Source of the DNA: an uncultured Pseudobdellovibrionaceae bacterium
GTDB lineage: Bacteria > Bdellovibrionota > Bdellovibrionia > Bdellovibrionales > JAGQZY01
Direction: 5' to 3'
DNA: 64,000 bases
NCBI GenBank assembly: GCA_964400355.1
Contig: CAYNTO010000011.1
Span: forward strand, 8,992 to 72,991
The position numbers and the translations under genes are program-made. The notes beneath the pieces were generated by a model. The model was not told the DNA's origin, did not search any database, and saw only the letters and a list, made by a program, of their open reading frames with translations. Below, one piece after another: positions 34,893-64,000 of the stretch; position 1 is the stretch's first letter; the number at the start of each line of letters is the position of its first letter.

Positions 34893-35599
34893 TGATCTAA
34901 AAATGAATTCAGCGCGCGTTTGCTCTCACTGGAGAGTTCCGTGAAGTGCAGTCCCATGCCTCGCGGATAGGTGCCTTTGGCCTCATCTAAGCGCACGATA
35001 ATTGCCTCACAGCGCACTTTGCGGAGTGTATCGAGCGTGATGCTCACGTTCACGCGCTCGCCCATTTTGGGCAGTTGCGCCCAGGCAATATCGTCGAGCT
35101 GAATAAACAGCCCACTTTTCGAAACATCATAACTTTTTGAATTGAAAGATGAACTCACAAAAGGATTTACAGTGACATGAGCCACATGCTGCAAACGAGG
35201 CGCGCGCTGCCACCAGTGATGGCGCTTGTCCGAAAGTAACTTTTGGCTGGTGCGCGTGTAAAGAGGCACAAACACAACTGGGAAACAGAGCGAGCCCATC
35301 ATGGTTTCCACGACGGAAAAGTTATTGCCGTAGGCGGCCACAAGATAATTGTTCCAAAAGACCATAAACATGGAGGCCGGCATAAGTATTTTTGCCATGC
35401 GATGGCCTCGGTAAATGGCTAAAGCGGTTGTTGTGATCAATAAGATCGTGACCCAGTTAGGAAACGTGATGTGTTGATGAATGCGGTAAAAGTCTGTAAA
35501 GGGGAGATCCAGCAAAACGGCAACTTGGAAATAAAACGAAATGGCGATTCCTAACAGGATGAGTGGAATAAAATTAAACGCCAGTGGCTTTTTAATCAT
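34889..35599 (-). CDS. membrane protein (4 TM) with C-terminal PilZ domain
   Basis: 'DVSKSGLFIQLD' (D.S..G) and C-terminal 'GMGLHFTELSSESKRALNSFL' are PilZ-like. The N-terminal arginine motif is imperfect ('QRAPR'). Its start overlaps the upstream stop (ATGA). Confidence 0.65.
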   Translation of the reverse strand: MIKKPLAFNFIPLILLGIAISFYFQVAVLLDLPFTDFYRIHQHITFPNWVTILLITTTALAIYRGHRMAKILMPASMFMVFWNNYLVAAYGNNFSVVETMMGSLCFPVVFVPLYTRTSQKLLSDKRHHWWQRAPRLQHVAHVTVNPFVSSSFNSKSYDVSKSGLFIQLDDIAWAQLPKMGERVNVSITLDTLRKVRCEAIIVRLDEAKGTYPRGMGLHFTELSSESKRALNSFLDH

Positions 35600-36672
35600 G
35601 AGCGCGGTCCCTCCGAAAAATCGTTGCAGTAGCTGTAAATCATATTGAGGTAGTATTGAATATTTTTAAGTTCGGCGTCGTTCATCCACTTTTTGGGATT
35701 TTTGAGCAGTACGCGCTTCACCCGCTCAGGCCCGCTATTGTAACTGGCGAGCACAACATTGGTCAGTTGTTCGTCGGTTGTGATGTTTGCGTCTTTGAGC
35801 AACTGTTTGTTGTCTTTAGAACCCCAGAAGCGAACGATATACTTGAGATAGCTGGCTCCGCCCTTCAGTGAAAGGTCGGGTTGTAAGCGCCAATCTGAAT
35901 CTGAATTTAAATCACCCGCTACTATTTGCGCCTTTACCTCAGTAACAGGCACGGAGCTCAGATCGCGGCGCGGCCACTGGGCGGTTTTTTTCTCGATCTG
36001 TTGGAGTGCGATATCTGTGATTTGCGTAAGGCCTAATGCTTTTGCAGAACTCACAGCGAGGGGATTAAAACCCGATTCCATAGCAACCAGGCCTGCAATG
36101 AGGCTTGCATTGAGGCGCTCTTCACGGCCCGACAGATTGACCATTCCCAAGAACTCAGGCGGTGTCTCAAACCCGTGGAGCCCTCGCGCTGGCAGTGTTT
36201 TGTAAATGGAGCAAGAAGGCTTAGTGAGTTTGTAGGAGTAAAAATGGAGATCTTCCTGGTACAAAAAGGCAATTTCATGGAGTTGTTTGGCGGATAGTTT
36301 TAAGCCAGAGAACTCGACACGCATGAGTTTTTCATTGGGAAACATTTTCACGCGACTGTTTTTTACAAAAAGCTCGGTAAGGTCTGTCGAGTTGTAGATA
36401 AGGCGAAAATTGCGAATGTCTGGAGCTTTTGTCTTTCCGATCACATCCAACCGCAGGGTGTCTTCTTTGTGATAGAACTGTTGGCGCGGAAAAAATTGAA
36501 CCGTGTAATGCTTGTCCGATTCTACAGAGATCAACGAGAGATCCGACGGTGCTTTGAGCAACGGCGTAAACTGGTGGGCGGCACCAAAGGGGCTCGTCGG
36601 TCCAGCACAGGCGGTTGCGCCCAAATAGGCAGCAATGAGAATAAAAAACTTCCGTGCTTTTACTCGAGTCAT
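35596..36672 (-). CDS. lytic transglycosylase (SLT domain) lipoprotein
   Basis: Lipobox 'LGATACAG'. SLT motifs are 'LVAMESGFNP', 'ALGLTQIT' and 'ASYNSGPERV'. Confidence 0.8.
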   Translation of the reverse strand: MTRVKARKFFILIAAYLGATACAGPTSPFGAAHQFTPLLKAPSDLSLISVESDKHYTVQFFPRQQFYHKEDTLRLDVIGKTKAPDIRNFRLIYNSTDLTELFVKNSRVKMFPNEKLMRVEFSGLKLSAKQLHEIAFLYQEDLHFYSYKLTKPSCSIYKTLPARGLHGFETPPEFLGMVNLSGREERLNASLIAGLVAMESGFNPLAVSSAKALGLTQITDIALQQIEKKTAQWPRRDLSSVPVTEVKAQIVAGDLNSDSDWRLQPDLSLKGGASYLKYIVRFWGSKDNKQLLKDANITTDEQLTNVVLASYNSGPERVKRVLLKNPKKWMNDAELKNIQYYLNMIYSYCNDFSEGPRS

Positions 36673-43831: not shown

Positions 43832-44902
43832 ATGATGCAAATGCGTTTTCAGTTTCCACTCATTTTAGTTCTCTTTGCGGTTGCGTGTAGCACGGGCAAA
43901 CAGTGGAAAAGTGAACCAGTGGCCGTACATTCCTTAGTTCAGCCCATCAGCAACTTCGTCGCTGCAATGAATGCATCCAACTGCACGGCCACGGTGCCAG
44001 CGTTGCGCTCCTACTTGGAATCTCTTGACCTTTCTAAATATAAATTAGATCGCGAGCTGCAAAATCATCTGTTTCAGATGCGTTTGAATATCAAACACGT
44101 CTTTGCCGAGGGTGTAAATTCCCAGTCAGAATCGCTGTGCACACCTATGGCCAAACAGGCTCTTGTGGACTTGCGTACGCTGGATGAGTCTTTAGGTTTC
44201 CAGCTCCTCCCAGCAAGCGAGCGCAGCCCCGCATCGTCATCTGTGAGCCCAGCCTCGCTGTTCACCGATTCGCACCGCCAATTGGTTGCCAATAAATATC
44301 GCGACGACGGTGTATCGAGCCTGATGGATTTAAAAACCGCCGATATTCTTTTGCTCCACCGCAGTGGAACACAACCGTTATTGGAGCAGACGGGTGCGGA
44401 CTGGACCGACGTGCTCGTGGTTTTTCGCGACAACGAAGGCGAAATTTATTTTTTCTTCGCCCATGACAAAAAAGTTCTCCGCCGGGGCTGGTATCAAGCC
44501 AGCGACTGGATCAAGAGATCCGCGAGCAGACTTCACGTGTTACGACCTATCGATCCACCGAGTGGGGACACCATCGAGCGTTTACAAAACCGCGTGCTTA
44601 AAAACCCTTACGCCTTTGGCGATCTGATCAAAAAAGAATTCAAGCTCAAAGCCGCAAGCACAGCTTTGCCCGGCGTCGGCGACGTGGTGTTGGGAATGGA
44701 TCTGGAACTCAGTCCAAGTCTGGTGAGCATTTCGGAGTGGAAGGATTATTCGGCAGCCTACAACGCGCGCGTGATCTCGCAGCAACCGGCAGCTGTTCCT
44801 GCACCAAATGCCATTCAAAGACTACCTGATAACTTATTGCCAAAGTCGCCGCAGCGGAGCTATCTCGACGAGAAGACTGTTCGCGGGACTATGAGTTACT
44901 GA
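43832..44902 (+). CDS. hypothetical lipoprotein (356 aa)
   Basis: Lipobox 'LFAVACST'. No family recognised. Confidence 0.55.
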   Translation: MMQMRFQFPLILVLFAVACSTGKQWKSEPVAVHSLVQPISNFVAAMNASNCTATVPALRSYLESLDLSKYKLDRELQNHLFQMRLNIKHVFAEGVNSQSESLCTPMAKQALVDLRTLDESLGFQLLPASERSPASSSVSPASLFTDSHRQLVANKYRDDGVSSLMDLKTADILLLHRSGTQPLLEQTGADWTDVLVVFRDNEGEIYFFFAHDKKVLRRGWYQASDWIKRSASRLHVLRPIDPPSGDTIERLQNRVLKNPYAFGDLIKKEFKLKAASTALPGVGDVVLGMDLELSPSLVSISEWKDYSAAYNARVISQQPAAVPAPNAIQRLPDNLLPKSPQRSYLDEKTVRGTMSY

Positions 44903-47311: not shown

Positions 47312-47986
47312 GTGGCGCCATTTTTATTTTTTTTGTACTTGCTGATTTTTTTATTCGAGAAAGGCCATGCAATGGACATTCATGTGCACCATGAAAAGCC
47401 CTTTTACGCGTATGAATTTACAACGCCAAAAAACTGGAAGAGTCAAAAGTGGAGTGAATCCAGCCAACGCTTTCTTCCCCCAACAAATATCGACATTCAT
47501 TTCGAGGTGCCGCCAAGTCTGGACACCATAGCATTGGAGCGTGTGCCCGCAGAGGATGTTGAGTGGCGTGTGAAAGAAGAGGGAGAGAATGCTCACGGAG
47601 TCACTTACAAGGCGGTGTACCTTAAGGGCTGGGCCGCTTCGGGGTATTTGCTGTCGCGGGAGCGCTTGAAGATTTATCTAATAGACGCGGTGGGCGAGCA
47701 CCGTGAGTTCGGATTGTCAGGGTCGCAGTTGCTCGAACAGGCGCGAGACAGCTTCTCATTTATAAATCCCGACCATCTGCTCGAAAAGGATGTTCGCCGC
47801 TTGCTGTTGGCTTCGGACTACAGAAAACTGCTGACCGATACCGACGCGCAGTTAAAGGCCACCACGGCATTTCAGATTGTCACGCAGGGTGATAAATATG
47901 TGGTGAGCTTTAAGGGACTGCGGGGCGGTCCGATTTTTCATATATTTAAGAAAGATCTTAGGATTGTTCACTTCAATAAAAAATAA
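47312..47986 (+). CDS. hypothetical protein with N-terminal hydrophobic leader
   Basis: GTG start 7 nt after a GGAGG. No family recognised. Confidence 0.5.
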   Translation: MAPFLFFLYLLIFLFEKGHAMDIHVHHEKPFYAYEFTTPKNWKSQKWSESSQRFLPPTNIDIHFEVPPSLDTIALERVPAEDVEWRVKEEGENAHGVTYKAVYLKGWAASGYLLSRERLKIYLIDAVGEHREFGLSGSQLLEQARDSFSFINPDHLLEKDVRRLLLASDYRKLLTDTDAQLKATTAFQIVTQGDKYVVSFKGLRGGPIFHIFKKDLRIVHFNKK

Positions 47987-48341: not shown

Positions 48342-48614
48342 TTTCCCATTGTGTCTGATGGGTGTGGGAGGTCCAGGTTTGGCGCGCTGTGGCTGCTCGG
48401 AAAGCGGCGCCTGCGGGGTTTTTCAGCAATTTACCCGACCTTTGGCAAATGTCTCACTTTGAGACAATAAAAAACGGGCAATTGAACTCAATTAACGACT
48501 AAAATAACAACAAGGTGTTAAGGATTGATACATCTTTTCACAACAGCATCTTGTTAATAGCGTCTGAGTTGGTATGTGGTTCGCAGGTGTATATGTTATC
48601 TAAGGGGGAGAACC

Positions 48615-49217
48615 ATGAAAAACGAACGTAAGGTCATTCCATTTACCAAACCATTTAAAAAGAATCTTGTGCGCACATCCATCAATGACGTGAGAGCTGC
48701 GGCCACGGGCACAATAGCTTTTATTCTGCTGATGATGGTGGGATTCAACTTTCAAATGTTTCAGGGTTCCAATGTCACAGAAGCGAATGCGACACAGTCG
48801 CAACGTGGACTTGCCAGTGTGCCCAAGGTACTCGCTCCACAGTGGAAAAAAAGCCTTTCTGAATTGGGTCAAAAAGAGATGGTGCAAAAGGCCAGTCGTC
48901 CATCGGCCATCGATTCACTCACTTACGGCTATCTTAAAGGAAATTATTCGTTCACGGTTGAAAAAGGCGCTGTAAAAAGTATCCATTTTTCGAACGCCAG
49001 TGAAGCGCAGCCACAAGTTGTGGGTGATCGCCAAAAATTTATCAACGATCATGCCTCGGCCATCGCTCCCGATCTGCAGAGCATCAGTAGTGCTCAGCGC
49101 GAAGTTTCAGAAAAAGGTGTGCGCGAGATCTACAATCTTAAAACATCCACAGCTACAAAGACAGTGGTGTTCGAGCTCGACAAAAATAATGGATTGATCG
49201 GTATAGCCGTACAGTAA
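48615..49217 (+). CDS. hypothetical membrane-anchored protein
   Basis: ATG 48615 follows a GGGGGAG RBS. It has one TM ('GTIAFILLMMVGF'). Confidence 0.5.
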   Translation: MKNERKVIPFTKPFKKNLVRTSINDVRAAATGTIAFILLMMVGFNFQMFQGSNVTEANATQSQRGLASVPKVLAPQWKKSLSELGQKEMVQKASRPSAIDSLTYGYLKGNYSFTVEKGAVKSIHFSNASEAQPQVVGDRQKFINDHASAIAPDLQSISSAQREVSEKGVREIYNLKTSTATKTVVFELDKNNGLIGIAVQ

Positions 49218-49420
49218 GTCCTAAGTCCTGTCGACGACTTCGGCAAAAGAATTCCAATTACCGCTTATTAAATTGGGAAAAAGTGTACAACTTTTTCCCA
49301 TTTTTTATTGTGCGGCCATAAATTCCTGTATGTGTAAAAAAATACAAATCGATCATTAAAATCGCGGGTCTAAGCCACGTATCCACCGATAGGTTTTCTA
49401 TACCTAGAGGAGTGTCGTCG

Positions 49421-50188
49421 ATGAAACCTGGATTTAAAATACTCTTAATCGCCCTAATCAGTGCCCTTATCACCGCGTGCTCTCAACAAGGTAGTGACTA
49501 CGTGAGCCTCGATGATCGTTTGGTACCAGTGGAAACCGGTGATCCCCAGGCGAGTCAAGATGTAGAAGAAGAACAGGTGGGTGGTGATGTGAGTAAGCCC
49601 CCAACCACGCCCGTGCCCGCCACGCCAACGCCTGCACCTGTGGTCACATTGCGTGAAAAAATTCTGATGAATTCCGATGTTTCCGAGAAAGCTCTCGACA
49701 ATGCGTTTAAGTATTTCGACGCGCATCAATCTGTGATTCGCAATAAAAACTTTATGACCATTTTTGATATCGGCCAGCACTCCGGTAAGCGTCGTTTTTA
49801 TATGATCGATCTTAAAACGGGCGTTGTGAAAGCCATGCACACCGCCCACGGCAATGGCTCTGACCCAGACCACGACGGTATTGCCACTCTTTTTTCTAAC
49901 GTTTCCGGATCTAAAAAGTCCTCACTGGGATTTATGCTCACCGCCGAAGAGTACGTTGGCAAGCACGGTGGGTCTATGCGTCTCGATGGCCAAGAAGATC
50001 GCAACAGCAAAGTGCGATCGCGCGCCATCGTGGTCCACAGCGCAAGCTACGTCGATCCCTCACTTAGCAAAATGGGTCGCAGTGAAGGCTGCCCTGCAGT
50101 TGCACTGGCCAACATCAAAGACGTGGTTGCCAAACTCAAAAACGGCTCCCTCTTCTACATCTACCACAAAGACTACGACGGCAAATAA
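49421..50188 (+). CDS. L,D-transpeptidase catalytic-domain family lipoprotein (YkuD_2 type)
   Basis: ATG 49421 lies 9 nt after AGAGGA. Lipobox 'ALITACSQ'. 'RFYMIDLKTG...HTAHGNGSD', 'SSLGFMLT' and 'VVHSASYV....GRSEGCPAV' (catalytic Cys) are present. Confidence 0.75.
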   Translation: MKPGFKILLIALISALITACSQQGSDYVSLDDRLVPVETGDPQASQDVEEEQVGGDVSKPPTTPVPATPTPAPVVTLREKILMNSDVSEKALDNAFKYFDAHQSVIRNKNFMTIFDIGQHSGKRRFYMIDLKTGVVKAMHTAHGNGSDPDHDGIATLFSNVSGSKKSSLGFMLTAEEYVGKHGGSMRLDGQEDRNSKVRSRAIVVHSASYVDPSLSKMGRSEGCPAVALANIKDVVAKLKNGSLFYIYHKDYDGK

Positions 50189-50426: not shown

Positions 50427-51392
50427 GTGAAGTCTTTATTAATAGCTTTAATGTGCTCGTTCGTAGCTACGCCATCTTTTGCGCAAATTGACGACCATAC
50501 AAAACTCGATCAACTTACTGCCGGTACGGAGCCGTTCTTTGATCAGTCGACGATCGGTACAATCTACTTCGTCGACGATGAACTTACAAAAACAGCCAAC
50601 TCTCTTGATTTCTCGAAAGTTCGCAAACTCGTCGCCGACCTCAATAACATCGAATCGGTGTGGTCTATCGATAAAGCGGAAGTGTGCGATTCTTTGTCAC
50701 TCTCTACAGCGGCTCAAGGCGCTTGCCTCACGCGCAATTTGGAGTTGGGCTTGGCACATTTCTTTTCCGCCTTTCAAAAAACAAAACGCGTACTGCGCGC
50801 AAAAGGCGATGAAGGCATTCAGGCAGCGATCAACCTGTCTGACGCGGTAAAAGCGCTGACCAAGTATGAGTCGTTGATGTGCGATCTCGAGAATGCCGCG
50901 TGGTGGGGTGGTTCGGGCCAAGGCATTGTGACTTATGGATGCTTGATGGCCGTTACCGAGAAAGGCAATCAAATGCTCACCAATCTTCGCGCCATGGCGA
51001 CAGATGCCACTCACCAAGACGTAGCGAACGCTCAAAGCATTGGTAAGAGCACGATTCTCGACACGGCTACGCTTCAGAGCGGACTCAAGAATGCGCAAGA
51101 ATACACAAAGTGGATGGAAGAATACGTAGCAGAGCAGATTCCCAAGTTCTTCGGAGAAATTTCTGAAGAGGCGCAGAAATCTACTCGTGAAATGCTCGAC
51201 GCCTCCACAGTACTTTTCGCACAAGCCTCCAATTCCTACTGCAAAGCCTACGTGAGCATCGTAGTACCAACGTTCAAAGATCAAGCCAAATACGGCGACC
51301 GCATCAACACCGTCTGCCTCCGCGATATCAACAACCAACGCGGACAAGACCTCAACAAAATTGGATCCACCCTCACCACCACCGAAGAGTAA
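50427..51392 (+). CDS. secreted protein with repeated DUF1311 / LprI (lysozyme-inhibitor)-like Cys-pair modules (tentative)
   Basis: GTG start 5 nt after AAGGAG, with a signal peptide ending 'SFAQ'. Three segments each carry a Cys pair followed by '...R/N..L' (e.g. 'YESLMCDLENAAWWGGSGQGIVTYGCLMAVTEKGNQMLTNL'). Confidence 0.4.
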   Translation: MKSLLIALMCSFVATPSFAQIDDHTKLDQLTAGTEPFFDQSTIGTIYFVDDELTKTANSLDFSKVRKLVADLNNIESVWSIDKAEVCDSLSLSTAAQGACLTRNLELGLAHFFSAFQKTKRVLRAKGDEGIQAAINLSDAVKALTKYESLMCDLENAAWWGGSGQGIVTYGCLMAVTEKGNQMLTNLRAMATDATHQDVANAQSIGKSTILDTATLQSGLKNAQEYTKWMEEYVAEQIPKFFGEISEEAQKSTREMLDASTVLFAQASNSYCKAYVSIVVPTFKDQAKYGDRINTVCLRDINNQRGQDLNKIGSTLTTTEE

Positions 51393-54578: not shown

Positions 54579-55034
54579 TTAGGAGATAAAATTCCATTGG
54601 CTATTGGCGTACTCAAACACTTTGAACTCGGCACAGCCAAAAAAAGAATAGGGGGCAAAAACCTGTTGGGGGCCTTCGAGGAGCAAAACCGCATGCTGCA
54701 ACCAATCGGAGTGGCTGCACACGAGAACTGTTTGGGGTTCGGAGCGCGGGAGGGAATCGAGAAACCGCGATATACGGCGGGTGAAATCGCTGGGGGCTTC
54801 GATCTGGCGCATCTGATCCACTTCGTTGGTGATTTCCACCGCAGTGCCAGCCGCTTTGACCAGTGGTTCGATAGTTTGGAGCGCGCGGCGTTTGGGAGAG
54901 CAGTAAATGCGTTCGATGCCTGCAAACTCTTTGGCGTGTGCTAGAGCGAGAGCCTGCTCCAACCCCTTAGGGGAGAGAGGAACATCGCTGAATCCTGGGC
55001 TGCGGTCGCCGTGGCGAAGAAGTATCAATTTCAT
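54579..55034 (-). CDS. histidine phosphatase family protein (SixA/PGM-like)
   Basis: 'MKLILLRHGDRSP' RHG motif, 'VLVCSHSDW' and 151 aa. Confidence 0.65.
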   Translation of the reverse strand: MKLILLRHGDRSPGFSDVPLSPKGLEQALALAHAKEFAGIERIYCSPKRRALQTIEPLVKAAGTAVEITNEVDQMRQIEAPSDFTRRISRFLDSLPRSEPQTVLVCSHSDWLQHAVLLLEGPQQVFAPYSFFGCAEFKVFEYANSQWNFIS

Positions 55035-55162
55035 AATTCCAACAATTTTTTATAGGCGCACTAACTGGAGAATGATAAACTAGGGTTAATTTATAATAAA
55101 GCAATTAACCTGCGTTATCAAAAAATTCTCTTGCGGTAATTAATGAAAACCCGACAAGATAA

Positions 55163-56086
55163 ATGAAATCTCATCAACTGGAGTTGGCGCACATCATGGG
55201 CACATCGAAAATGTTCAAGTTTCTCTCCGAAGATGGTTTTGTTCGCGCCTCTGCAGTTGTTTTTACCGATGTTCTCAATGACCTGCGCACGCTCCAGGAA
55301 ACATCCCCGTCGTCCACACTGGCGCTCGGACGGAGTATGGTCGGTGCCATTCTACTTGCTGCGCGCCTCAAGGACGAACAGGCCATTGCCATCCAGATCA
55401 AATGCGACGGGCCGTTAAAAATGGCGTTTGCTCAGGCGACGTACGAGGGTGGCGTGCGCGCTTATGTGGCGGAACCGCAGTTACCCATGTCTGTGAATCG
55501 CGGGAATTTATTTATCGCACCTCATGTGGGGCAGGGCACCCTGTCGGTGAGCACGTATTTGCAATCGGCGTCTCAACCGCAGGTGAGTCAGGTGCTGTTA
55601 CAAACGGGAGAGATCATCGAGGACATCGCTCATTACATTCGCACCTCGTTACAACTCCCATGCTTGATCAATTCGTCGATTCTGCTCGGCTCTGAGGGAA
55701 TTGTGACCAGCGCCGCGGGGCTCATGGTGGAAATGATGCCCGGACATAGCGAGGAGCACATCGCCCGTGTCGAGAGTTGCTTTAAAGCCATGGGGCCGCT
55801 CTCGGAGATGATGGGCGATGATGTTTCGGCCGAGGATATTCTGAAATTATTTTTTGTTGGCGTGCCGGGAAAAATTTGGCAACACCCCCATCCTATTCAT
55901 GTTTCTTGTTCCTGCAGCCGCGCAAAAGTGGTGGCGTCGATTCAGTTGCTAGGGGCGGATGAAATCAAAGATATGATTCAAAAGGACGAAGCGGTCGAGG
56001 TCAAATGTGAGATGTGCGGTCGCAAATATCTTATTCACAAACAAGAGCTCAAAGACGCCTATCAGTCTCTGATCAAATTGCATTGA
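55163..56086 (+). CDS. hslO: Hsp33-family redox-regulated chaperone
   Basis: It has the C-terminal zinc motifs 'CSCSR' and 'CEMCGRKY' and the typical ~290-300 aa length. The start may be an internal Met. Confidence 0.85.
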   Translation: MKSHQLELAHIMGTSKMFKFLSEDGFVRASAVVFTDVLNDLRTLQETSPSSTLALGRSMVGAILLAARLKDEQAIAIQIKCDGPLKMAFAQATYEGGVRAYVAEPQLPMSVNRGNLFIAPHVGQGTLSVSTYLQSASQPQVSQVLLQTGEIIEDIAHYIRTSLQLPCLINSSILLGSEGIVTSAAGLMVEMMPGHSEEHIARVESCFKAMGPLSEMMGDDVSAEDILKLFFVGVPGKIWQHPHPIHVSCSCSRAKVVASIQLLGADEIKDMIQKDEAVEVKCEMCGRKYLIHKQELKDAYQSLIKLH

Positions 56087-56205
56087 TCAATTTCGGCAAA
56101 AAATGCTCAAATTCTTCCTTCAATCCCACCGCTCGCTATAGAATTTACATTCGTAGATATGACTTTTGATAAGGCGCAGCGGATTCTGCTAATAAAAATA
56201 GCACT

Positions 56206-57045
56206 ATGCTGGTCCAACTGTCTAGACACCTTATATTTTTAGCTATTTTCAGTTTCGGGGGATCCGTCGCGCACGCCCAGGGCAACAGCTCTGGAACGAA
56301 CGTTAACCCCGAGCCTCAGGCCGTTGCCGAGAGCTCGGCCGCCACCTCTAATGACAACATTGAGCTCCTTTACGACATCTATGGTGAAAGCTATTCGGCC
56401 GTTCAGTACGACGGGTGGGTTCATCAAGCGCGACTGAGATTGCTGTATCCGTTTACTGAGGGCGCCTTTGTCTATTCCGGCGCGTACTGGAGCAATGATG
56501 CCACTGAAAATACCGGTGGACTCCGTTACGCCGATGATTTCGTATCTCCAGCCGCCGGCCTGCTCTACAAACCGTGGACGTTTCTGGGAATTTTTGCCGA
56601 GTATCGTCGACTGTTTCGCACCACAAGTAACGAACTTCCCGGAGCCGAACACGATCCGCGCTACGGCGTTTATGGGTACTATCTCTATGAATTGCCGGTT
56701 GTGGCGCGCCCGCATTTGGAGTTTTACGGCGAGTCTGTGGCACTTACACGATTCACCTCAAAACCCATCTCAACGGCGTGGCTCAAGCTCGGTAGCGAGC
56801 AGCACCTGCTTAAGGATCAGCTCACAGTCACTCCGTATCTAGAATATTTTTTAAGAGAGAGCCCAAACCTCATGATCGGTTTCGATGATCAGAGCTGGAG
56901 AATGGGCGCGAAGCTCAAGTACCGCTGGAAGTCCTATTCGGTGCAACTATTAACGTACCGTCGCTTTCATAGCGATCAGACGCCGCTCGGATGGGAAAGC
57001 CTTTTGGTGCTATCCGCCGATGGGTCGGTGGCTCCATGGAACTAA
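56206..57045 (+). CDS. hypothetical secreted aromatic-rich protein (possible outer-membrane component of the EPS operon)
   Basis: Signal peptide 'FSFGGSVAHAQG' and Tyr/Trp-rich beta-like segments. It overlaps the downstream GT start by 10 nt. Confidence 0.5.
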   Translation: MLVQLSRHLIFLAIFSFGGSVAHAQGNSSGTNVNPEPQAVAESSAATSNDNIELLYDIYGESYSAVQYDGWVHQARLRLLYPFTEGAFVYSGAYWSNDATENTGGLRYADDFVSPAAGLLYKPWTFLGIFAEYRRLFRTTSNELPGAEHDPRYGVYGYYLYELPVVARPHLEFYGESVALTRFTSKPISTAWLKLGSEQHLLKDQLTVTPYLEYFLRESPNLMIGFDDQSWRMGAKLKYRWKSYSVQLLTYRRFHSDQTPLGWESLLVLSADGSVAPWN

Positions 57046-58397
57046 CTGTGATTCTCTACATCCAAGCAGTGTTTGTCCTTATTGTCATCGCTCTGGCGAT
57101 TTTTAGCATTGATGATTTATTCATTGATCTATTTGCACTGTTCCACGGCGTTGGCCCTAAAAATATATCGATGCACGCTCTGCAAAGTGCCAGTGAAAAA
57201 AAGATCGCCATCATGATCGCCAACTGGCAAGAAGAGGATGTCCTGGAGCAAATGATCACGGGCAACAACGACTCGATCATTTATAACAATCATCACTTTT
57301 TTCTGGGCGTGTATCCCAACGATGTACGCACGCTCGATATCGCGCAAAATCTCTCCGCACGTTACGCCAATGTTCACGTTGTATTAAATTCCAAACATGG
57401 ACCCACTTCCAAGGGTCAGATGATGAACGAAATGATGGCGCAAATTCTTAAAAACGAAGATGCGCTCCAGTCTCCCTTTGATCTATTTGTAATCCATGAT
57501 TCAGAAGACATCATTCACCCGCTGTCGCTCAAGCTCTACAATAAGGAATCTGATGTTTTGGATTTTATCCAGATTCCTATTTTCTCGCTCGGCCGCCGAT
57601 TGAGTCAGTTCGTCGCGGGTACGTACATGGATGAGTTTTCCGAAACGCACACAAAAGAATTGCTCATTCGCCACAAATTGGGAGCCGCCATTCCGTCAGC
57701 GGGAGTGGGAACCTGCGTGAATCGTCGAGTGGTCGATGCCATGCTTATCGAAAACGATGGCTACTTTCTCCATCCTGATAGTCTCACCGAGGATTACATT
57801 TTGGGATTACAGACGCACCTCCTGGGATTTCGCTGCGGCTTTGTTTGTAAATCGGTAGTGGGGCTATCGGGTCGCGAACACATTATTGCCACGAAGGAGT
57901 TTTTCCCCGAAGGCTTTCATCAATCGATCCGTCAAAAAACGCGCTGGACAGTGGGTATTGTGTTTCAGGGCTGGCGTATTCTGGGATGGACCGATTCTTT
58001 GGTCGATAATTACTTTTTAATGCGCGATCGTCGCGGGCCCGTAAATTCCATGGTTACTTTGATAGCAATGTTGTGTTTGATCGGTGCTGTAGTTATGCCA
58101 AAAATTATCACAGATCTCTACACCACGCCCATTGCTTACATTCTTGTACTCAACCTGGTTGGCTTTACGATTCGCGCATTCCAACGCGTGCGCCATCACG
58201 GAATTGTGTATGCGACGTATCCCATCGCCATCATTTTTTTACGATGGCCCGTGGCGATCGTGATCAACGCGTTCTCATCGGTGCGCGCAGGTTACCAGTT
58301 TTATTTGTCGATATTTAAAGATCAAAAAATTGCTTGGTCGAAAACCAAGCACAAATTACCCAAAGATTTCGGTAAACCCGCACAGGAGACAGTATGA
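57036..58397 (+). CDS. NfrB-like family-2 glycosyltransferase (membrane-embedded polysaccharide synthase), lacking a C-terminal MshEN domain
   Basis: 'SIDDLFIDL', 'GVYPND', 'GPTSKG', 'HDSEDIIHP', 'YMDEFSETH', 'IPSAGVGTC', 'SLTEDY', 'IRQKTRWTVGIVFQG' and 'NYFLMRDRRG' are collinear with E. coli NfrB as I recall it. There are TM segments at both ends. Confidence 0.75.
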   Translation: MELTVILYIQAVFVLIVIALAIFSIDDLFIDLFALFHGVGPKNISMHALQSASEKKIAIMIANWQEEDVLEQMITGNNDSIIYNNHHFFLGVYPNDVRTLDIAQNLSARYANVHVVLNSKHGPTSKGQMMNEMMAQILKNEDALQSPFDLFVIHDSEDIIHPLSLKLYNKESDVLDFIQIPIFSLGRRLSQFVAGTYMDEFSETHTKELLIRHKLGAAIPSAGVGTCVNRRVVDAMLIENDGYFLHPDSLTEDYILGLQTHLLGFRCGFVCKSVVGLSGREHIIATKEFFPEGFHQSIRQKTRWTVGIVFQGWRILGWTDSLVDNYFLMRDRRGPVNSMVTLIAMLCLIGAVVMPKIITDLYTTPIAYILVLNLVGFTIRAFQRVRHHGIVYATYPIAIIFLRWPVAIVINAFSSVRAGYQFYLSIFKDQKIAWSKTKHKLPKDFGKPAQETV

Positions 58398-59680
58398 AAT
58401 TCCTAACACCCATAACCACTTGGCTCTTCGCTACACTTTGCTTTGTCTCAGTGAGCGTGTCGTCTACCGCGCAAGCAATGTACAAAGGTTTTAACCTGAC
58501 CGAGTATGAAGGCTTTCAGTACGATGCTGCTCCTGACAAAAAGAGTGACGCGCAAATTGCAGTAGATCGTGTAAAAGCGCTGGGTGTAAACCACATCGAA
58601 CTCAATATTCGCGCCAAAATGATCGGTCCCAATTCCAACGAAATCATTCCAGCCACTCCGGCCACTGACAGCGCAAACGAGCTCAAACGCATCGTGCGGT
58701 TGATGAACTATATCCACTCGCAGAACATGACCGTGGGCTTGCGCCCGATATTTTTTGTGGTGGGGCCGAGTGGCGAATTTCCGTATATCGTAAAAACAGA
58801 AAAAGGCGAGAAGACCTGGTGGCACGGCAACATTCAACCGAGCAATCCGACCAATTGGTTTTTGAGCTTTCAAAACTATCTCGATCGTTACGCTCTCGCT
58901 GCCAAACTTGGCAAAGCCGACACGTTCACCATCGGTGCCGAGCTGTACAGCATGACTGTTGGAGTAGAGGATCAGTGGTTGGAATTTCCATATGGGTTTC
59001 CGAACAACTGGCTTTCGCTCCTGCGCTATTTTAAAAACAAACTGGGTTCAACCACCAAGATTGCCTACGATATTAATTTTACCGATGATTCCAATGCCGA
59101 CGTGAGTGGTATTCTCAAATCTGGAGGCGAACTTGAGCGCTGGCGCTACCGCTTGGTGGACCTTGCCGATCCACAAGACTCGGCCGAAAAACAAACATGG
59201 CAGGATCTTGTTCAGTTCTGGAAAGAACTCGATCTGGTGGGCATAGATATGTACCGATCCTTGGCCTACAGTACGGACGCCATTCCCGAAGACTTCGACG
59301 CACTTGTGGCACACCTTATGAAGCGCTCAGACTCCTATGCCCAACAGCTCGATACCACTCTGCTCGAGATTGGTCTCACACTCGATGTGGAAAAAGAAAT
59401 CGTGTTCAAAGAAATCGGTTTCCGCAGCGTGGACCGCGCCTTTATTGATCCGTTCAATTATACCACCGCTGCGGGCGCCTACAATGAGATGCACCAGGCT
59501 GCCGGTTACAAAGCGATTTTCGAATCTTTTATGGCCAAAGGCTTTAGTTGGTTTAAGGGCATTAATTTTTGGGATATCCCCATTGATCCAAAAGCTCACG
59601 GGCCGAACGACCTGGGATTTAGCCCACTCGATAAACCACTCACCGAGCAACAGATCAAAAACTATTTTGGAGCACCCTAA
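58394..59680 (+). CDS. secreted TIM-barrel glycoside-hydrolase-like protein (GH5/GH113-like, tentative)
   Basis: It has a signal peptide and overlaps the GT by ATGA. 'GVNHIELN', 'TIGAELYSM' and 'FKEIGFRS' resemble clan GH-A strand-4/strand-7 Glu contexts. Confidence 0.4.
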   Translation: MKFLTPITTWLFATLCFVSVSVSSTAQAMYKGFNLTEYEGFQYDAAPDKKSDAQIAVDRVKALGVNHIELNIRAKMIGPNSNEIIPATPATDSANELKRIVRLMNYIHSQNMTVGLRPIFFVVGPSGEFPYIVKTEKGEKTWWHGNIQPSNPTNWFLSFQNYLDRYALAAKLGKADTFTIGAELYSMTVGVEDQWLEFPYGFPNNWLSLLRYFKNKLGSTTKIAYDINFTDDSNADVSGILKSGGELERWRYRLVDLADPQDSAEKQTWQDLVQFWKELDLVGIDMYRSLAYSTDAIPEDFDALVAHLMKRSDSYAQQLDTTLLEIGLTLDVEKEIVFKEIGFRSVDRAFIDPFNYTTAAGAYNEMHQAAGYKAIFESFMAKGFSWFKGINFWDIPIDPKAHGPNDLGFSPLDKPLTEQQIKNYFGAP

Positions 59681-59683
59681 ATA

Positions 59684-60736
59684 ATGATTTTAGCGGTTTA
59701 TCTTTTTATTTTGCACTTTACTCCCGGTGCGGTTGCGCAGTTGATACCACCCGACGTGGGTGCCTATCATGGCGCCTATGCGGATTTTGGTCCCATGGCG
59801 AGTGCGGTGAGCGCAGAGAAAATTAGAGAGTTTGAGGCCAGCGCGCAGAAAAAGGTAGCGTGGGCCTATTTTGCCAATGACTGGCTCGACGGTGTTATCG
59901 AATATCCGGAACAGAATGTATCGGAGTGTATCAAAGCCAATGTGATTCCCTATATTCGCCTCATGCCGTGGACCGAAGCGCAAACCAAAGCCACCCAAAA
60001 AGATCCGTACCTAAATATGGATAAGATTCTGAGCGGCGAGCACGATTTCGCTCTCAAGGTTTACGCACGAAAGGTAAAAACAGCTGGCGTGCACTTCATG
60101 CTCGAGTTTGGCCCCGAAGTGAACGGCGACTGGTTCCCGTGGAACGGCAAATGGAACGGTGGTGGCTCCAAAGATAAATATGGGGATCCTGAATGGCCGG
60201 ATGGTCCCGAGAAGTTCCGCAATGCTTTTCGCCACATCGTTGATATTTTTCGCGCTGAGGGTGCCAAAAATATAACGTGGATTCTTCATCTCGATACAGC
60301 GGCGTCACCGAATGTCGCCTGGAACGATGCTAAGTACTATTACGCCGGCGACGATTATGTGGACTGGATTGGTCTCTCCGTGTTTGGCGCGCAACTGCCC
60401 AATCATGAGTGGCTGCAATTTATTTCCAAAATGAAAAACTTTGAGAAGCAACTCGATGCCATCAGCACCACCAAACCCGTGTTGATTTCGGAATTCGCTG
60501 TTATCGAAGACAAAAATGACCCCGAACGCAAGGCCAAATGGATCAAGCAGGCTTTGCAATCTATTGAAAAAGGTTTGTTCAAACGCATTAAGGGTATCAA
60601 CTACTGGAATAGCCCGGGCTGGCTTGAAAACCAAAAAGCCAGTTTCAAAATCGATACGTCCGCTCAAGCTCTTAAGGCTTACCGCGACGGAGTTGCCAGT
60701 GATTTTTGGAAGACCGAAGGGGTTGTGAATGAGTAA
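59684..60736 (+). CDS. GH26-like glycoside hydrolase (beta-mannanase family fold)
   Basis: 'MLEFGPEVNGDWFPWNG' (GH26 'E.NG.WF.W') and 'PVLISEFAV' (nucleophile context). Signal peptide present. Confidence 0.55.
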   Translation: MILAVYLFILHFTPGAVAQLIPPDVGAYHGAYADFGPMASAVSAEKIREFEASAQKKVAWAYFANDWLDGVIEYPEQNVSECIKANVIPYIRLMPWTEAQTKATQKDPYLNMDKILSGEHDFALKVYARKVKTAGVHFMLEFGPEVNGDWFPWNGKWNGGGSKDKYGDPEWPDGPEKFRNAFRHIVDIFRAEGAKNITWILHLDTAASPNVAWNDAKYYYAGDDYVDWIGLSVFGAQLPNHEWLQFISKMKNFEKQLDAISTTKPVLISEFAVIEDKNDPERKAKWIKQALQSIEKGLFKRIKGINYWNSPGWLENQKASFKIDTSAQALKAYRDGVASDFWKTEGVVNE

Positions 60737-62540
60737 CTGTAGTCGAGCATTAAACATTTTAGTATGCGGATTTTTAATCGCGGGGTTTACTCCCGTGCGT
60801 GCCGACATTGCCGCGCCAAAAGTTGCGCGATTCAAGCAACCCTGTGTGAACATATATTTTGATAAATCCAAGGAAAAAACCTATCGTCTCGGAAAAACCT
60901 ACAGCATTTACCTGCAAAACCTCATGGGCCATTTCCCGGAGTTTCAACAAATCATCTCGCCGGTGGAGCAATACCGCGCTGGCGACATTGAAAAATGTGT
61001 GGCCACTTTTTACATTGGCTCTTACTTTGACAATTTGATCCCTGATGCGTTTATTCAAGATTACAAAAAGACGAAGAAGAACTTTGCCTGGATTGGGTAC
61101 AACATTTGGAAGGTCGAAAAGGAATTTCTCGAACAAACGTTTGGATACCAGTACAGCCATCTCACCACGCTGGATACGACGAAACTCGATGAAAAGAATC
61201 GTCCAACGTTTTTTCGCTATGTGGATTACAAGGGTGAGCGGTTCGAAAAATTTGGCGCCTTTGTTGGCCCCCAGCAGGAATTTCGTGCGGGCTTCGAGAT
61301 GGTGGCCTTTGAAAAAGCGCAGAATGCTGCAAATGTTGCCAATGTTCTCGCTGTCGCATCTCACAATGGGCACCAAGAGACGCTGCCATACATTTTGCAG
61401 AGTGGTAACCAATTTTACATCGCCGATGTTCCGTTTAGTTTTATTCATGAATCGGATCGTTACTTGGTGTTCGCGGACGTGTTGTTTGACATCTTGAACG
61501 CTAAACCTCGACACAAAAAGCGCAACGCCATCATCCGCATCGAGGATGTGCATCCACTGAGTCCGCTACCGGAGCTCTACAAAATTGCCCAAGTGTTTGC
61601 GCAGGAGAAAGTGCCGTTACATATCTCCATCGTGCCGGTGTTTTTTGACCCGCTCTACAAATTTGATCGCCCTCCCAAGCAAGAGTTTGTGCCGATGACC
61701 CACGAAGCGGGCTTTATGAGCTTTCTCGAGTCGCTCAAAAAACAGGAGGCTGAATACATCTGGCACGGTACGACTCATCAATACGGCCGCGTGGCCAACC
61801 CACATACCGGCTACTCCACAGATGACTTCGAATTTTGGGATGCAGTTAGAAATGCCCCTCTCGTTGAAGACAGTGTGGGTTATGTTTTGAACCGACTTGA
61901 TTTTGGATTTGAGTACCTTAAGGCCGCAGGCATAGAGCCATCGGTTTGGCTCACTCCACACTATCAAGCCTCAGCGCTCGACAGTGTGATATTTGGCCGC
62001 GCGTTTCCATGGGGTATCGGTCGCGCTATTTATTTTGAACACACAGTGGAGGGGTTGCCGGCAAAAACCAATTGGGACACGCTTCACTATGCGAGCGCCA
62101 ACAGTGCAGCCGAACGCAACTCGTACTTTAAAGATTTAAAGGTGAAAACGACAGGGGTTTGGAGTGGGCAGCTCTATCCTTACGAGATCTACGGGGATTA
62201 TTACGGGCAGCGCCTACTTCCCGAAATTCTCGGCAACCCTCAGCCGTTTGAAAATGCGCACGTGGTACAGCCGCGCACGATGAAAGAGATCGTGGCGGAT
62301 GCCAAACGCAACTTGGTATTGCGAGATACATGGGCGTCGCTGTTCTTCCATCCCTACTTACTAACGGACTTGTACAACGACGGTATCGGCGCGTTTCCCG
62401 GCGACAGCGCACCGCTTGTCGGACTCATTCGCGAGCTCAAAGGCTTAGGCTATGAGTTCATTAGTGCTCAACAATTTATCGAAAATAATGACCGCCGCCG
62501 ACCCGAACCTATTTACGTGAACGAAGGAGATACTCCATGA
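60729..62540 (+). CDS. DUF2334 (polysaccharide-deacetylase-like) domain protein with N-terminal unknown domain
   Basis: 'AIIRIEDVHPLSP...VPLHISIVPVF' is DUF2334-like. It has a signal peptide and overlaps the upstream gene by 8 nt. Confidence 0.5.
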   Translation: MSNCSRALNILVCGFLIAGFTPVRADIAAPKVARFKQPCVNIYFDKSKEKTYRLGKTYSIYLQNLMGHFPEFQQIISPVEQYRAGDIEKCVATFYIGSYFDNLIPDAFIQDYKKTKKNFAWIGYNIWKVEKEFLEQTFGYQYSHLTTLDTTKLDEKNRPTFFRYVDYKGERFEKFGAFVGPQQEFRAGFEMVAFEKAQNAANVANVLAVASHNGHQETLPYILQSGNQFYIADVPFSFIHESDRYLVFADVLFDILNAKPRHKKRNAIIRIEDVHPLSPLPELYKIAQVFAQEKVPLHISIVPVFFDPLYKFDRPPKQEFVPMTHEAGFMSFLESLKKQEAEYIWHGTTHQYGRVANPHTGYSTDDFEFWDAVRNAPLVEDSVGYVLNRLDFGFEYLKAAGIEPSVWLTPHYQASALDSVIFGRAFPWGIGRAIYFEHTVEGLPAKTNWDTLHYASANSAAERNSYFKDLKVKTTGVWSGQLYPYEIYGDYYGQRLLPEILGNPQPFENAHVVQPRTMKEIVADAKRNLVLRDTWASLFFHPYLLTDLYNDGIGAFPGDSAPLVGLIRELKGLGYEFISAQQFIENNDRRRPEPIYVNEGDTP

Positions 62541-64000
62541 GATTATTAATAGCCTTACTCTTTGTGGTCTTTACCGCACCGGCCATGGCGCTGGAATCGT
62601 CGACCGAGCTTTACAATCAGGCGCAGATCGATGCCAAGAGCCTGCAGGATGTTGTCTTAAAGTTGCAACAAAATATCTCCAGCATGACGAGCCCCAAAAC
62701 ATTCCGCGATTATTTCGCTCTACTTCCGCGCTTGAAGGAACTTTCTGTAAAGTTGAATCTGGAGCAAATTCATCCGGGCGGTGTGGAGAAGTTGGGGGAG
62801 TCCATGGTGTCCTACGGAACGCGATGGCTCGACCTCGCTAAAGATGATCTATTCATCGTAAAAGCTCACTTCGTATGGATGACTCCGGCTACGGCTCTTC
62901 GCTACTTGCATCAGATCGAAGACGATGTGTTCCTTCTTAAAGGGGAAGAATTTAAAAATTTTGCCACTGCGGTTCAGTACATTATCGAAGTGAGCGGCGA
63001 AAAGTTCACCAGTGATCCTTACATCGAGCAAGGCTATCGCAATTTGTTGTCGACACTGGCGTATCAAAAACTCAAGGTAACACCGATCACCGATGTGACG
63101 GAGCATCAGTACTGGATTCCTTCGATTAAAAACCAGGACACTCTCTCCTCGTACACCAATCTGTTGCAAGAGTACGTGCTGTCCTACTCTAAAGACAATC
63201 AGGACGAAGCGACCGCGATCGTGAATATCGTGATCGCGCTCGAGGACTACCTGGCTAAAAATACTTTTCCTGTTGCGGATGCGGTCAAAAGCTCGAGCGG
63301 CTACGTTGTGCTCGAACTTCTCGACAAGTCGATCTCACAGGCGTGGACTCTCGAGGAGAAATCCCTCACGCGATTGTTAGATATCCTGAATCTGGCGCAG
63401 TTGAATAGTCTTGCCGATCGGATGATGAGCCCGAGCCAGTCTGCAGGCGTGAAAATTTACAAGCAGTACATCGCTCTCGCCGAAAATCTCATGGCGCGCT
63501 TAAAAGCTATGAATGCTCCGTTAAAAGCGGCGGAGCTTGGAGCAAAAGCATTTTCAAAGATTGCGCCGGCCATGCTGCTCGCGGATGACCGCGAAGGCAC
63601 CTATGAAATCAAGGCCAAAAACTCCAAAGAGAAATGGCGTTTTACGGTTTTTAAATCCTCCGAAGGCCGCGTGATCGCAGGCCTCGGCCGCGTGAACGGC
63701 CTCGGCGGCAATTCCACATTCTTTAATGTTCAATATGATGTGACGACGAAAACCTTTCGAGCCTCCGAGAACGTGATTGTAGACGTGGGGGATTACAACT
63801 TTTTTGTGCAGTTCTCATTTGATCAGAATGGCGATGTCACTGTTAAATCACCACTGTTTCCTGCTGAGGTGGGTGAGGCATTGGTGGGCGCGCGCGTGGA
63901 GACTTACGCGACATACGCAGATGTCGCCGACAGCGAAGCCACTTACATTGAAGGGCATTTCGAAGGTTACACGACTTTAAGTGGTAAAAAGGTGCCGGTA
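62537..64000 (+). CDS. hypothetical secreted protein, N-terminal 488 codons; runs off the window end
   Basis: Absent from the ORF track because it is open-ended. ATG 62537 overlaps the upstream stop (ATGA). I translated it by hand to position 64000 with no stop. Signal peptide MRLLIALLFVVFTAPAMA. Confidence 0.7.
   Translation, partial: MRLLIALLFVVFTAPAMALESSTELYNQAQIDAKSLQDVVLKLQQNISSMTSPKTFRDYFALLPRLKELSVKLNLEQIHPGGVEKLGESMVSYGTRWLDLAKDDLFIVKAHFVWMTPATALRYLHQIEDDVFLLKGEEFKNFATAVQYIIEVSGEKFTSDPYIEQGYRNLLSTLAYQKLKVTPITDVTEHQYWIPSIKNQDTLSSYTNLLQEYVLSYSKDNQDEATAIVNIVIALEDYLAKNTFPVADAVKSSSGYVVLELLDKSISQAWTLEEKSLTRLLDILNLAQLNSLADRMMSPSQSAGVKIYKQYIALAENLMARLKAMNAPLKAAELGAKAFSKIAPAMLLADDREGTYEIKAKNSKEKWRFTVFKSSEGRVIAGLGRVNGLGGNSTFFNVQYDVTTKTFRASENVIVDVGDYNFFVQFSFDQNGDVTVKSPLFPAEVGEALVGARVETYATYADVADSEATYIEGHFEGYTTLSGKKVPV

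Follow-up and report, generated by a model that had tools for sequence, protein, structure and literature searches.

A six-gene operon of Bdellovibrionota as a probable variant of the Nfr exopolysaccharide system

Described systems and the operon

The Nfr/NGR glycan of Escherichia coli, a receptor for phage N4, was recognized only in 2021. The system that makes it comprises the processive family 2 glycosyltransferase (GT2) NfrB, the pore protein NfrA, the periplasmic protein YbcH and the epimerase WecB. NfrB function depends on WecB and on UDP-N-acetylmannosamine (UDP-ManNAc) (PMC8669469, PMC8669472). Here we compare Nfr and other exopolysaccharide (EPS) systems with a locus in a 64,000-nucleotide stretch of DNA (the window) from an uncultured Pseudobdellovibrionaceae bacterium. 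The locus consists of six plus-strand genes, numbered here g1 to g6, which run from position 56206 to beyond position 64000, where the window ends. We propose that this operon encodes a synthase-dependent EPS machine, a Bdellovibrionota-type variant of Nfr working by the five-step mechanism given below, and put the probability of this reading at roughly 60%. That the operon encodes an Nfr-type synthase-dependent EPS system at all is considerably firmer and, in our judgment, very probable; a polymer both based on N-acetylmannosamine (ManNAc) and partly deacetylated is an even bet.

The operon shares with Nfr a homologous processive GT2, a predicted barrel that is probably a distant relative of the C-terminal region of NfrA (Pfam NfrA_C), a periplasmic TIM-barrel glycosidase-like partner (YbcH in E. 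coli; proteins of glycoside hydrolase families GH113 and GH26 here) and, in relatives of the window locus, linkage to wecB. It differs in having no C-terminal MshEN domain on the synthase to bind cyclic di-GMP (c-di-GMP), no YbcH and no wecB at the locus, in placing the barrel gene ahead of the synthase gene, and in adding a two-domain DUF2334 protein (g5) and an orphan protein (g6). NfrA itself has 990 residues, with TPRs and a 16-strand barrel, whereas g1 has 12 predicted strands and no TPR. Because MshEN, a TPR-carrying NfrA and YbcH are absent and the NfrB model cut-off is missed, we regard the system as a variant of the Nfr kind and not as an E. coli-type member.

Comparison can also be made with PgaABCD, Pel and alginate. 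PgaC and PgaD bind c-di-GMP, PgaB joins a CE4 to a GH153 domain, and PgaA joins TPRs to a 16-strand barrel. The window operon resembles PgaABCD in its GT2 synthase, its periplasmic deacetylase-like and glycosidase-like partners and its predicted outer-membrane barrel, and its product, like that of Pga, would be a partly de-N-acetylated amino-sugar polymer. It differs in using DUF2334 together with GH113 and GH26, and in a synthase with no homology detected in PDB-level searches. With Pel it would share a hydrolase and a deacetylase for a periplasmic amino-sugar polymer, and a fusion protein of one relative (L036) mirrors the bifunctional PelA. The enzyme families, the synthase and the c-di-GMP receptor are different; PelF is a cytosolic GT4 and PelD the c-di-GMP receptor. 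In alginate export, a helical-repeat scaffold (AlgK) and a barrel (AlgE) are separate proteins, as we propose for g6 and g1. AlgK is a lipoprotein with recognizable TPR/SLR repeats and AlgE has 18 strands, while g6 has neither a Cys lipobox nor a Pfam repeat match and is missing from minimal loci. Measured against synthase-dependent EPS systems in general, the operon has the GT2 with transmembrane segments, and the outer-membrane barrel as seen in a predicted structure.

In the proposed mechanism, the inner-membrane protein g2 would polymerize and translocate a ManNAc-containing β-glycan from UDP-ManNAc, supplied by a WecB-type epimerase encoded elsewhere in the genome. The DUF2334 domain of g5 would take off some of the N-acetyl groups in the periplasm, and the clan GH-A proteins g3 (GH113-like) and g4 (GH26-like) would trim or clear the chain, a role played elsewhere by BcsZ, PslG, PelA and the C-terminal domain of PgaB. 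The polymer would exit through g1, a 12-strand barrel without TPR that is distantly related to NfrA. Finally, g6 and the N-terminal domain of g5 would connect the synthase with the enzymes and the pore, substituting for the absent TPR.

According to the open reading frame (ORF) list, all junctions are overlaps except for a single gap of 3 nt. The gene for g1 (56206-57045, 279 residues) overlaps that for g2 (57036-58397) by 10 nt if the latter starts at the ATG at 57036 to give 453 residues; an alternative ATG at 56991 would give 468. An ATGA joins g2 to g3 (58394-59680, 428 residues), the 3-nt gap separates g3 from g4 (59684-60736, 350 residues), g5 (60729-62540) overlaps g4 by 8 nt, and a second ATGA joins g5 to g6, which begins at 62537 and is still open at 64000, with 488 of its 571 codons inside the window. 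Two metagenome contigs that encode identical proteins (L001 and L007; L labels are ours) run past the window end, and L001 supplies the full length of g6, 571 residues. In both, a 316-bp gap separates g6 from a run of unrelated genes, among them one for an M10-peptidase-like protein and one for a phospholipase A1; the operon therefore has exactly six genes here. A preliminary description of this DNA had already proposed one operon with these junctions and a secreted sixth protein of more than 488 residues, and all six ORFs and their boundaries were found again. Its assignment of a GH-like, a GH26-like and a DUF2334 protein is borne out by Pfam, whose curated cut-offs are exceeded by GT2 (140 bits), GH113 (65.2), GH26 (33.7) and DUF2334 (120). 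Four of the six proteins are thus assigned to families; g1, g6 and the N-terminal domain of g5 belong to no Pfam or NCBIfam family. Signal peptides are present on all five proteins other than the synthase, g6 included.

Synteny was scored with tblastn and with hidden Markov models (HMMs) built from the window operon, in 80 genome loci around relatives of g2 and in four further metagenome or genome contexts. The counts given below cover the 58 loci with a short synthase, many of which lie on truncated contigs. Since many independent genomes carry this set of genes, the arrangement is not one of chance; together with the overlaps, this conserved synteny suggests that the six genes would be co-transcribed.

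The synthase and the predicted barrel

The preliminary description had recognized g2 as NfrB-like and as ending before an MshEN domain, and both points are upheld. The protein matches Pfam Glyco_tranf_2_3 at 1.4e-40 and, in BLASTP, E. coli K-12 NfrB residues 14-481 at 33% identity (E 2e-82). Its motifs DSED155-158, TED251-253 and QKTRW300-304, corresponding to DxD, TED and QxxRW, occupy columns that are invariant across 14 homologs. Hydrophobic segments lie on either side of the GT domain, one toward the N terminus and three toward the C terminus. The best NCBIfam models are the short PRK14716 NfrB-like NF011305 and NF011306 (442-486 residues), which carry no functional name and are matched end to end with 356 bits, below their curated cut-offs of 409 and 504. 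The NfrB model NF008411 is matched with 322 bits over positions 5-474 of 723, and its equivalog cut-off of 1170 is not reached. As g2 stops at the equivalent of NfrB residue 481, both the linker and the MshEN domain are absent. On its sequence, then, g2 is not under c-di-GMP control through MshEN. A search of PDB sequences with g2 gave no match at E<=0.01, so no characterized GT2 appears closer to it than NfrB.

A protein search returned 2262 relatives of g2 at E<=1e-10, many of 440-510 residues and some of them named from Bdellovibrio genomes. In a neighbor-joining tree of the GT domains from the 80 genome loci, short GTs (443-534 residues) form a clade apart from the long NfrB forms (541-780 residues), with members from Bdellovibrionota and from a few other metagenome-assembled genomes (MAGs). 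Because the short GTs cluster separately, the absence of MshEN is a trait of the clade and not a truncation. The locus shows that NfrB-type synthases also come in a second widespread architecture, which lacks a second-messenger domain and combines a reduced predicted pore with hydrolase-like and deacetylase-like partners of its own.

Short-clade GTs are also encoded in a Gemmatimonas MAG (L061) and in two Alphaproteobacteria MAGs (L063, L065), with no detectable g1, g5 or g6 nearby. Three loci of Halopseudomonas and Allohahella (L071, L076, L080) have a canonical NfrA (TPR plus NfrA_C) and YbcH together with an NfrB of only 541 residues, which aligns to E. coli NfrB up to about residue 510-525 and seems to be MshEN-less too. 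A g5-type DUF2334 gene and wecB precede NfrB in these loci.

The first protein of the operon, g1, has a signal peptide (...SVAHA/QGN). Its AlphaFold (AF2) model, computed with 14 homologs, is all-β with a mean predicted local distance difference test (pLDDT) of 78.8, 130 residues scoring at least 90. After the signal peptide and a low-confidence linker of about 30 residues, the chain forms 12 long antiparallel strands, and there is no TPR domain. Every PDB structure that Foldseek retrieves is an outer-membrane barrel: the COG4313 channel, KdgM, OmpG and autotransporter β-domains, with PgaA and BcsC lower down the list. The best template modeling (TM) scores are only about 0.45-0.5, so the match is to a generic small barrel. 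PDB sequence searches, profiles included, found no relatives.

The position of g1 next to the synthase is conserved, and g1 is 27-28% identical (E 2e-19 and 1e-17) to 262-residue proteins encoded upstream of Bdellovibrio GTs. A profile of 28 g1-family members aligns in hhalign with a profile of 12 NfrA members (probability 84-89%, E 2.5e-6 to 7e-6), residues 109-238 of g1 pairing with residues 812-941 of E. coli NfrA, within the Pfam NfrA_C region at 808-976. The real pair scores 51-53, compared with at most 19.4 for 40 column-shuffled controls and one reversed control. In addition, the g1 HMM weakly matches a 562-residue NfrA-like protein of Glycocaulis (E 6e-4). With moderate confidence we take g1 to be a predicted "mini-NfrA," a shortened and TPR-less relative of the NfrA pore.

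The Glycocaulis protein, which has few TPRs plus NfrA_C, is intermediate in size between E. coli NfrA (990 residues) and g1 (279). Short NfrA-like proteins of this kind accompany the GT in alphaproteobacterial loci, in Glycocaulis (L067, L069, L070, L074; GT of 582-613 residues) and in Oceanicaulis (L081, 749 residues).

Periplasmic enzymes and orphan domains

The third protein, g3, is a secreted TIM-barrel protein that matches Pfam GH113 at 8.5e-18 (cut-off 27 bits) and the GH113 β-mannanases of the PDB (5ylh, E 7.6e-5). Residues Glu183 and Glu340 align with the catalytic positions (GxE and xxE) of 5ylh/5yli and are invariant in 18 family members; the second of them corresponds to the residue that is replaced by Ala in the 5yli complexes. 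The fourth protein, g4, is likewise secreted and matches Pfam GH26 at 3.3e-8 (cut-off 20.2 bits) and the GH26 domain of Clostridium thermocellum endoglucanase H (2v3g, E 7.9e-20). Its residues E145 (PEVNGDW) and E270 (ISEFA) are invariant in 5 homologs. Judged by these residues, both proteins look like active retaining enzymes of clan GH-A. E. coli YbcH belongs to DUF4434, another TIM-barrel glycosidase-like family, and some Bdellovibrio loci have GHL6 instead, indicating that the periplasmic glycosidase-like partner is constant while its family varies.

With three secreted proteins of this kind, two hydrolase-like and one deacetylase-like, the locus could also be a cluster for polysaccharide degradation or utilization, the GT2 being unrelated to the hydrolases. 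We consider this far-fetched: the operon encodes no transporter, sugar kinase, isomerase or regulator, the GT retains all processive-synthase motifs, and the core that stays invariant over the 58 loci consists of g1 and the GT and does not include the hydrolases.

The fifth protein, g5, has two domains. The N-terminal one (60729-61514; about residues 1-262, with the domain proper at about 30-260) is an orphan periplasmic domain with no Pfam or PDB relatives. The C-terminal one (61527-62540) is a DUF2334 domain, CE4-like and a putative metal-dependent polysaccharide de-N-acetylase; residues 267-544 match the Pfam family at 1.3e-34 (cut-off 26 bits). Residues E272, D273, H346, H350, D366, E368, H411 and H541 are kept in 17 of 18 full-length homologs from three phyla, a set that resembles the Asp/His/His metal site and catalytic His of CE4. 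The family profile also weakly matches a CE4-type chain (E 0.065), with HGxTHQ aligned to HSYTHQ. The one exception among the homologs (L044:11466-13052) has lost the conserved DUF2334 Asp/His and is probably catalytically dead. Another homolog (L059:13518-16376) is about 1000 residues long, with an extra N-terminal region. Cys39 of g5, directly before a V-x-I-Y-Y-D motif at the beginning of the N-terminal domain, is kept in Bdellovibrionota but missing in the homologs of Acidobacteriota and of gamma- and betaproteobacteria.

The N-terminal domain of g5 also occurs alone, as a protein of 227-279 residues encoded after the GT in nine loci (L005, L017, L020, L023, L028, L031, L042, L050, L056). 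As the sole partner besides g1 in minimal loci, it may have a core coupling role. In an Oligoflexia MAG, a weakly GH113-like domain, the N-terminal domain and DUF2334 are fused into one chain of 1002 residues (L036:13700-16705), and this fusion suggests that hydrolase and deacetylase are linked as in PelA and PgaB.

The distribution of g5 reaches beyond the window's own lineage. In Halopseudomonas and Allohahella, two-domain homologs adjoin canonical NfrB/NfrA/YbcH loci. The Ottowia homolog is next to an NfrB/NfrA-like locus in which no YbcH was detected, and those of Geothrix and of a Holophagaceae MAG neighbor long NfrB-like GTs. Because its homologs flank Nfr loci of gamma- and betaproteobacteria and of Acidobacteriota, g5 appears to be an Nfr accessory across phyla and not a peculiarity of Bdellovibrio. 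Our literature search found no paper on the function of DUF2334, and association with Nfr-type synthases in at least three phyla would give this family its first coherent functional context.

This distribution bears on the possibility that the proteins g3 to g6 are directed mainly at foreign glycans during predation, for example at peptidoglycan or the surface polysaccharide of prey, instead of at the product of the neighboring synthase, and that their genes are clustered with the synthase gene for co-regulation only. The lineage is Bdellovibrionales, whose predatory members release numerous hydrolases and deacetylases that attack the envelope of their prey, and g6 is restricted to the lineage. 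The g5 homologs, however, accompany Nfr-type loci in the non-predatory Halopseudomonas, Allohahella, Ottowia and Geothrix, and the N-terminal domain alone follows the GT in minimal loci. Start/stop overlaps tie these genes to the synthase, and a hydrolase and deacetylase pair is the standard accessory set of synthase-dependent systems. We therefore judge an action mainly on foreign glycans to be quite improbable, and retain the reading of the operon as an Nfr variant.

The last protein, g6, has 77 representative homologs among 1.84 billion proteins in an exhaustive HMMER search, most of about 570 residues; a minority of the matches are short and presumably partial sequences. It has no Pfam match (TPR included) and no PDB sequence match. 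Its AF2 model, built with 53 sequences, reaches a pLDDT of 91.8 and a predicted TM score of 0.83, and consists of an 18-helix repeat domain (residues 22-349) followed by β domains (354-571). In fold searches against PDB and viral structures the matches are to TPR, Sel1 and designed helical-repeat folds, and all are weak (TM<0.3). Wherever both genes are intact, g6 directly follows g5, except in L039, where it precedes g5. Possibly g6 is a periplasmic scaffold that replaces the missing TPR of NfrA, and this predicted role is the weakest link in the model.

Synteny, polymer and surroundings

Among the 58 short-GT loci, a g1 homolog lies directly upstream of the GT in 48, and a WecB-like epimerase is present in the retrieved flanks of 36. 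Full-length g5 is found in 33 loci and a protein of about 228 residues equal to its N-terminal domain in 10. A GH113-like gene occurs in 25, g6 in 20, GHL6 in seven and GH26 (g4) in three, to which L003 and L090 may be added. The commonest layout is g1-GT-g5-g6-GH113, with or without wecB in front, and the minimal layout is g1-GT preceded optionally by wecB and followed by the stand-alone N-terminal domain of g5. The commonest layout, g1-GT-g5-g6-GH113, is seen for instance in B. bacteriovorus Bd5 (L054), and HCB strains have it as well. B. bacteriovorus has an additional form with GH113, GHL6, wecB and g1-GT. The order seen in the window (g1-GT-GH113-GH26-g5-g6) is complete only in the near relatives L003 and L009, where wecB is added as a seventh gene directly after g6 on the same strand; L090, whose GT is 85% identical to g2, shares the first four genes before its contig ends. 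Neither the operon nor any of the short-GT loci yielded a YbcH homolog.

Several genomes of Bdellovibrio and Pseudobdellovibrio carry two paralogous short-NfrB loci (L011/L043, L023/L026, L017/L019, L027/L040). Typically one of the pair is a full locus (g1-GT-g5-g6-GH113) and the other is smaller, without g6 and GH113: g1-GT alone, g1-GT with the N-terminal domain of g5, or, in Pseudobdellovibrio HCB154, a GT with full-length g5 near GHL6. These pairs suggest two polymers or two modes of regulation per genome.

The linked epimerases are non-hydrolyzing WecB equivalogs of TIGR00236, scoring 412-478 bits against a cut-off of 210. Since wecB is linked in relatives and E. coli NfrB needs WecB, ManNAc is supported as the building block of the family. 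The locus is real, widespread in one phylum and more predictable than the preliminary description held. That account had called the partner set entirely different from that of NfrB, which must be revised given the alignment of the g1 family with the C-terminal barrel of NfrA and the DUF2334 proteins that adjoin canonical NfrB/NfrA loci. It had further held that polymer, regulation and export route could not be predicted from known systems; this remains apt for the regulation, but wecB linkage points to the polymer and the g1 barrel to the route of export. The description of the system as uncharacterized agrees with our literature search, which found no paper on this locus type or on NfrB-like loci of Bdellovibrio.

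The same secretion machine might instead carry another polymer, either a β-mannan made from GDP-mannose or a chain like chitin or poly-N-acetylglucosamine made from UDP-GlcNAc, with wecB serving another need or a side decoration in the relatives. Identity between the synthase and NfrB is no more than 33%, every NCBIfam equivalog cut-off is missed, and the window operon has no wecB. Twenty-two of the 58 loci show no epimerase in the retrieved flanks, although many of these are truncated contigs; the epimerases that are linked clear the WecB equivalog threshold, and the two loci with the complete window order have theirs immediately behind g6, on the same strand. The classical activity of families GH113 and GH26 is β-mannanase, yet a deacetylase-like partner would have no role with a mannan that carries no acetyl groups. 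On balance we regard a different polymer as unlikely, and favor the ManNAc-containing chain of the proposed Nfr variant.

Several points nevertheless weigh against this proposal. Neither the 64-kb window (tblastn with two linked epimerases) nor the next 5.4 kb in L001 and L007 contains wecB, so that a supply of UDP-ManNAc in this genome is presumed. GH family membership does not fix the substrate, and among solved structures g4 comes closest to a lichenase and not to a mannanase. Known EPS pores have 16-18 strands and are larger than a 12-strand barrel. The kinship of g1 with NfrA_C comes from one profile-profile match at 84-89% probability, and single g1-family sequences do not match Pfam NfrA_C. 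The roles given to g6 and to the N-terminal domain of g5 are guesses from fold class and synteny. Pfam and NCBIfam searches of the six proteins found no c-di-GMP receptor (PilZ, MshEN, GIL or degenerate GGDEF), and Rfam searches, in which a c-di-GMP riboswitch would have shown, were negative both over 54900-57200 (E<=1) and, at gathering score, over the full window. Moreover, the polymer that NfrB itself makes has never been defined by chemical means, and its ManNAc basis is only "postulated" (PMC8669472).

A more specific version of the proposal is correspondingly tentative, and we think it somewhat doubtful as a whole: that in Bdellovibrionota a c-di-GMP-independent Nfr-type machine, hitherto unrecognized, exports partly de-N-acetylated, polycationic poly-ManNAc through a 12-strand porin, and that g6 and the N-terminal domain of g5 are new classes of periplasmic coupling protein. 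If it is true, partly de-N-acetylated poly-ManNAc would be an EPS chemistry not yet described and g1 the smallest known EPS porin. With g3, g4 and g5 there would for the first time be enzymes with specificity for NGR-type glycans, and these could serve to define the structure of the glycan that phage N4 uses as its receptor on E. coli. The locus in any case nominates enzymes for probing NGR-like polymers. According to a 2025 preprint on the detection of EPS clusters, Bdellovibrio is alone among the core genera of activated sludge in that the vast majority of its species have no detected exopolysaccharide cluster (bioRxiv 10.64898/2025.12.21.693542), and the present locus fills this gap. A polymer on the cell surface could influence how these predators attach, how they live in biofilms and how susceptible they are to phages.

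Upstream of the operon, the Hsp33 ORF ends at 56086, and a 119-nt intergenic leader on the plus strand (56087-56205), the presumed promoter region, separates it from g1. Promoter and terminator scans returned no more sites than in shuffled sequence, with no convincing sigma-70 site in the leader. A riboswitch or structured leader in place of MshEN was considered and rejected, there being no Rfam match and the leader folding no more stably than shuffles (z -0.88). The upstream genes (Hsp33, a histidine phosphatase and PutA) are unrelated housekeeping genes. Recent horizontal transfer was also rejected, because GC content is even (0.45-0.52) across the operon and its flanks and L090 has the same upstream genes.

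Four ORFs farther upstream in the window (50427-51392, 43832-44902, 47312-47986 and 48576-49217; 213-356 residues) belong to no Pfam family, and the one at 50427 has a signal-peptide-like N-terminus. Positions 49412-50188 encode a YkuD_2 L,D-transpeptidase-like secreted protein and positions 35596-36672 an SLT lytic transglycosylase; with no evident link to the operon, these two are cell-wall enzymes typical of the lineage.

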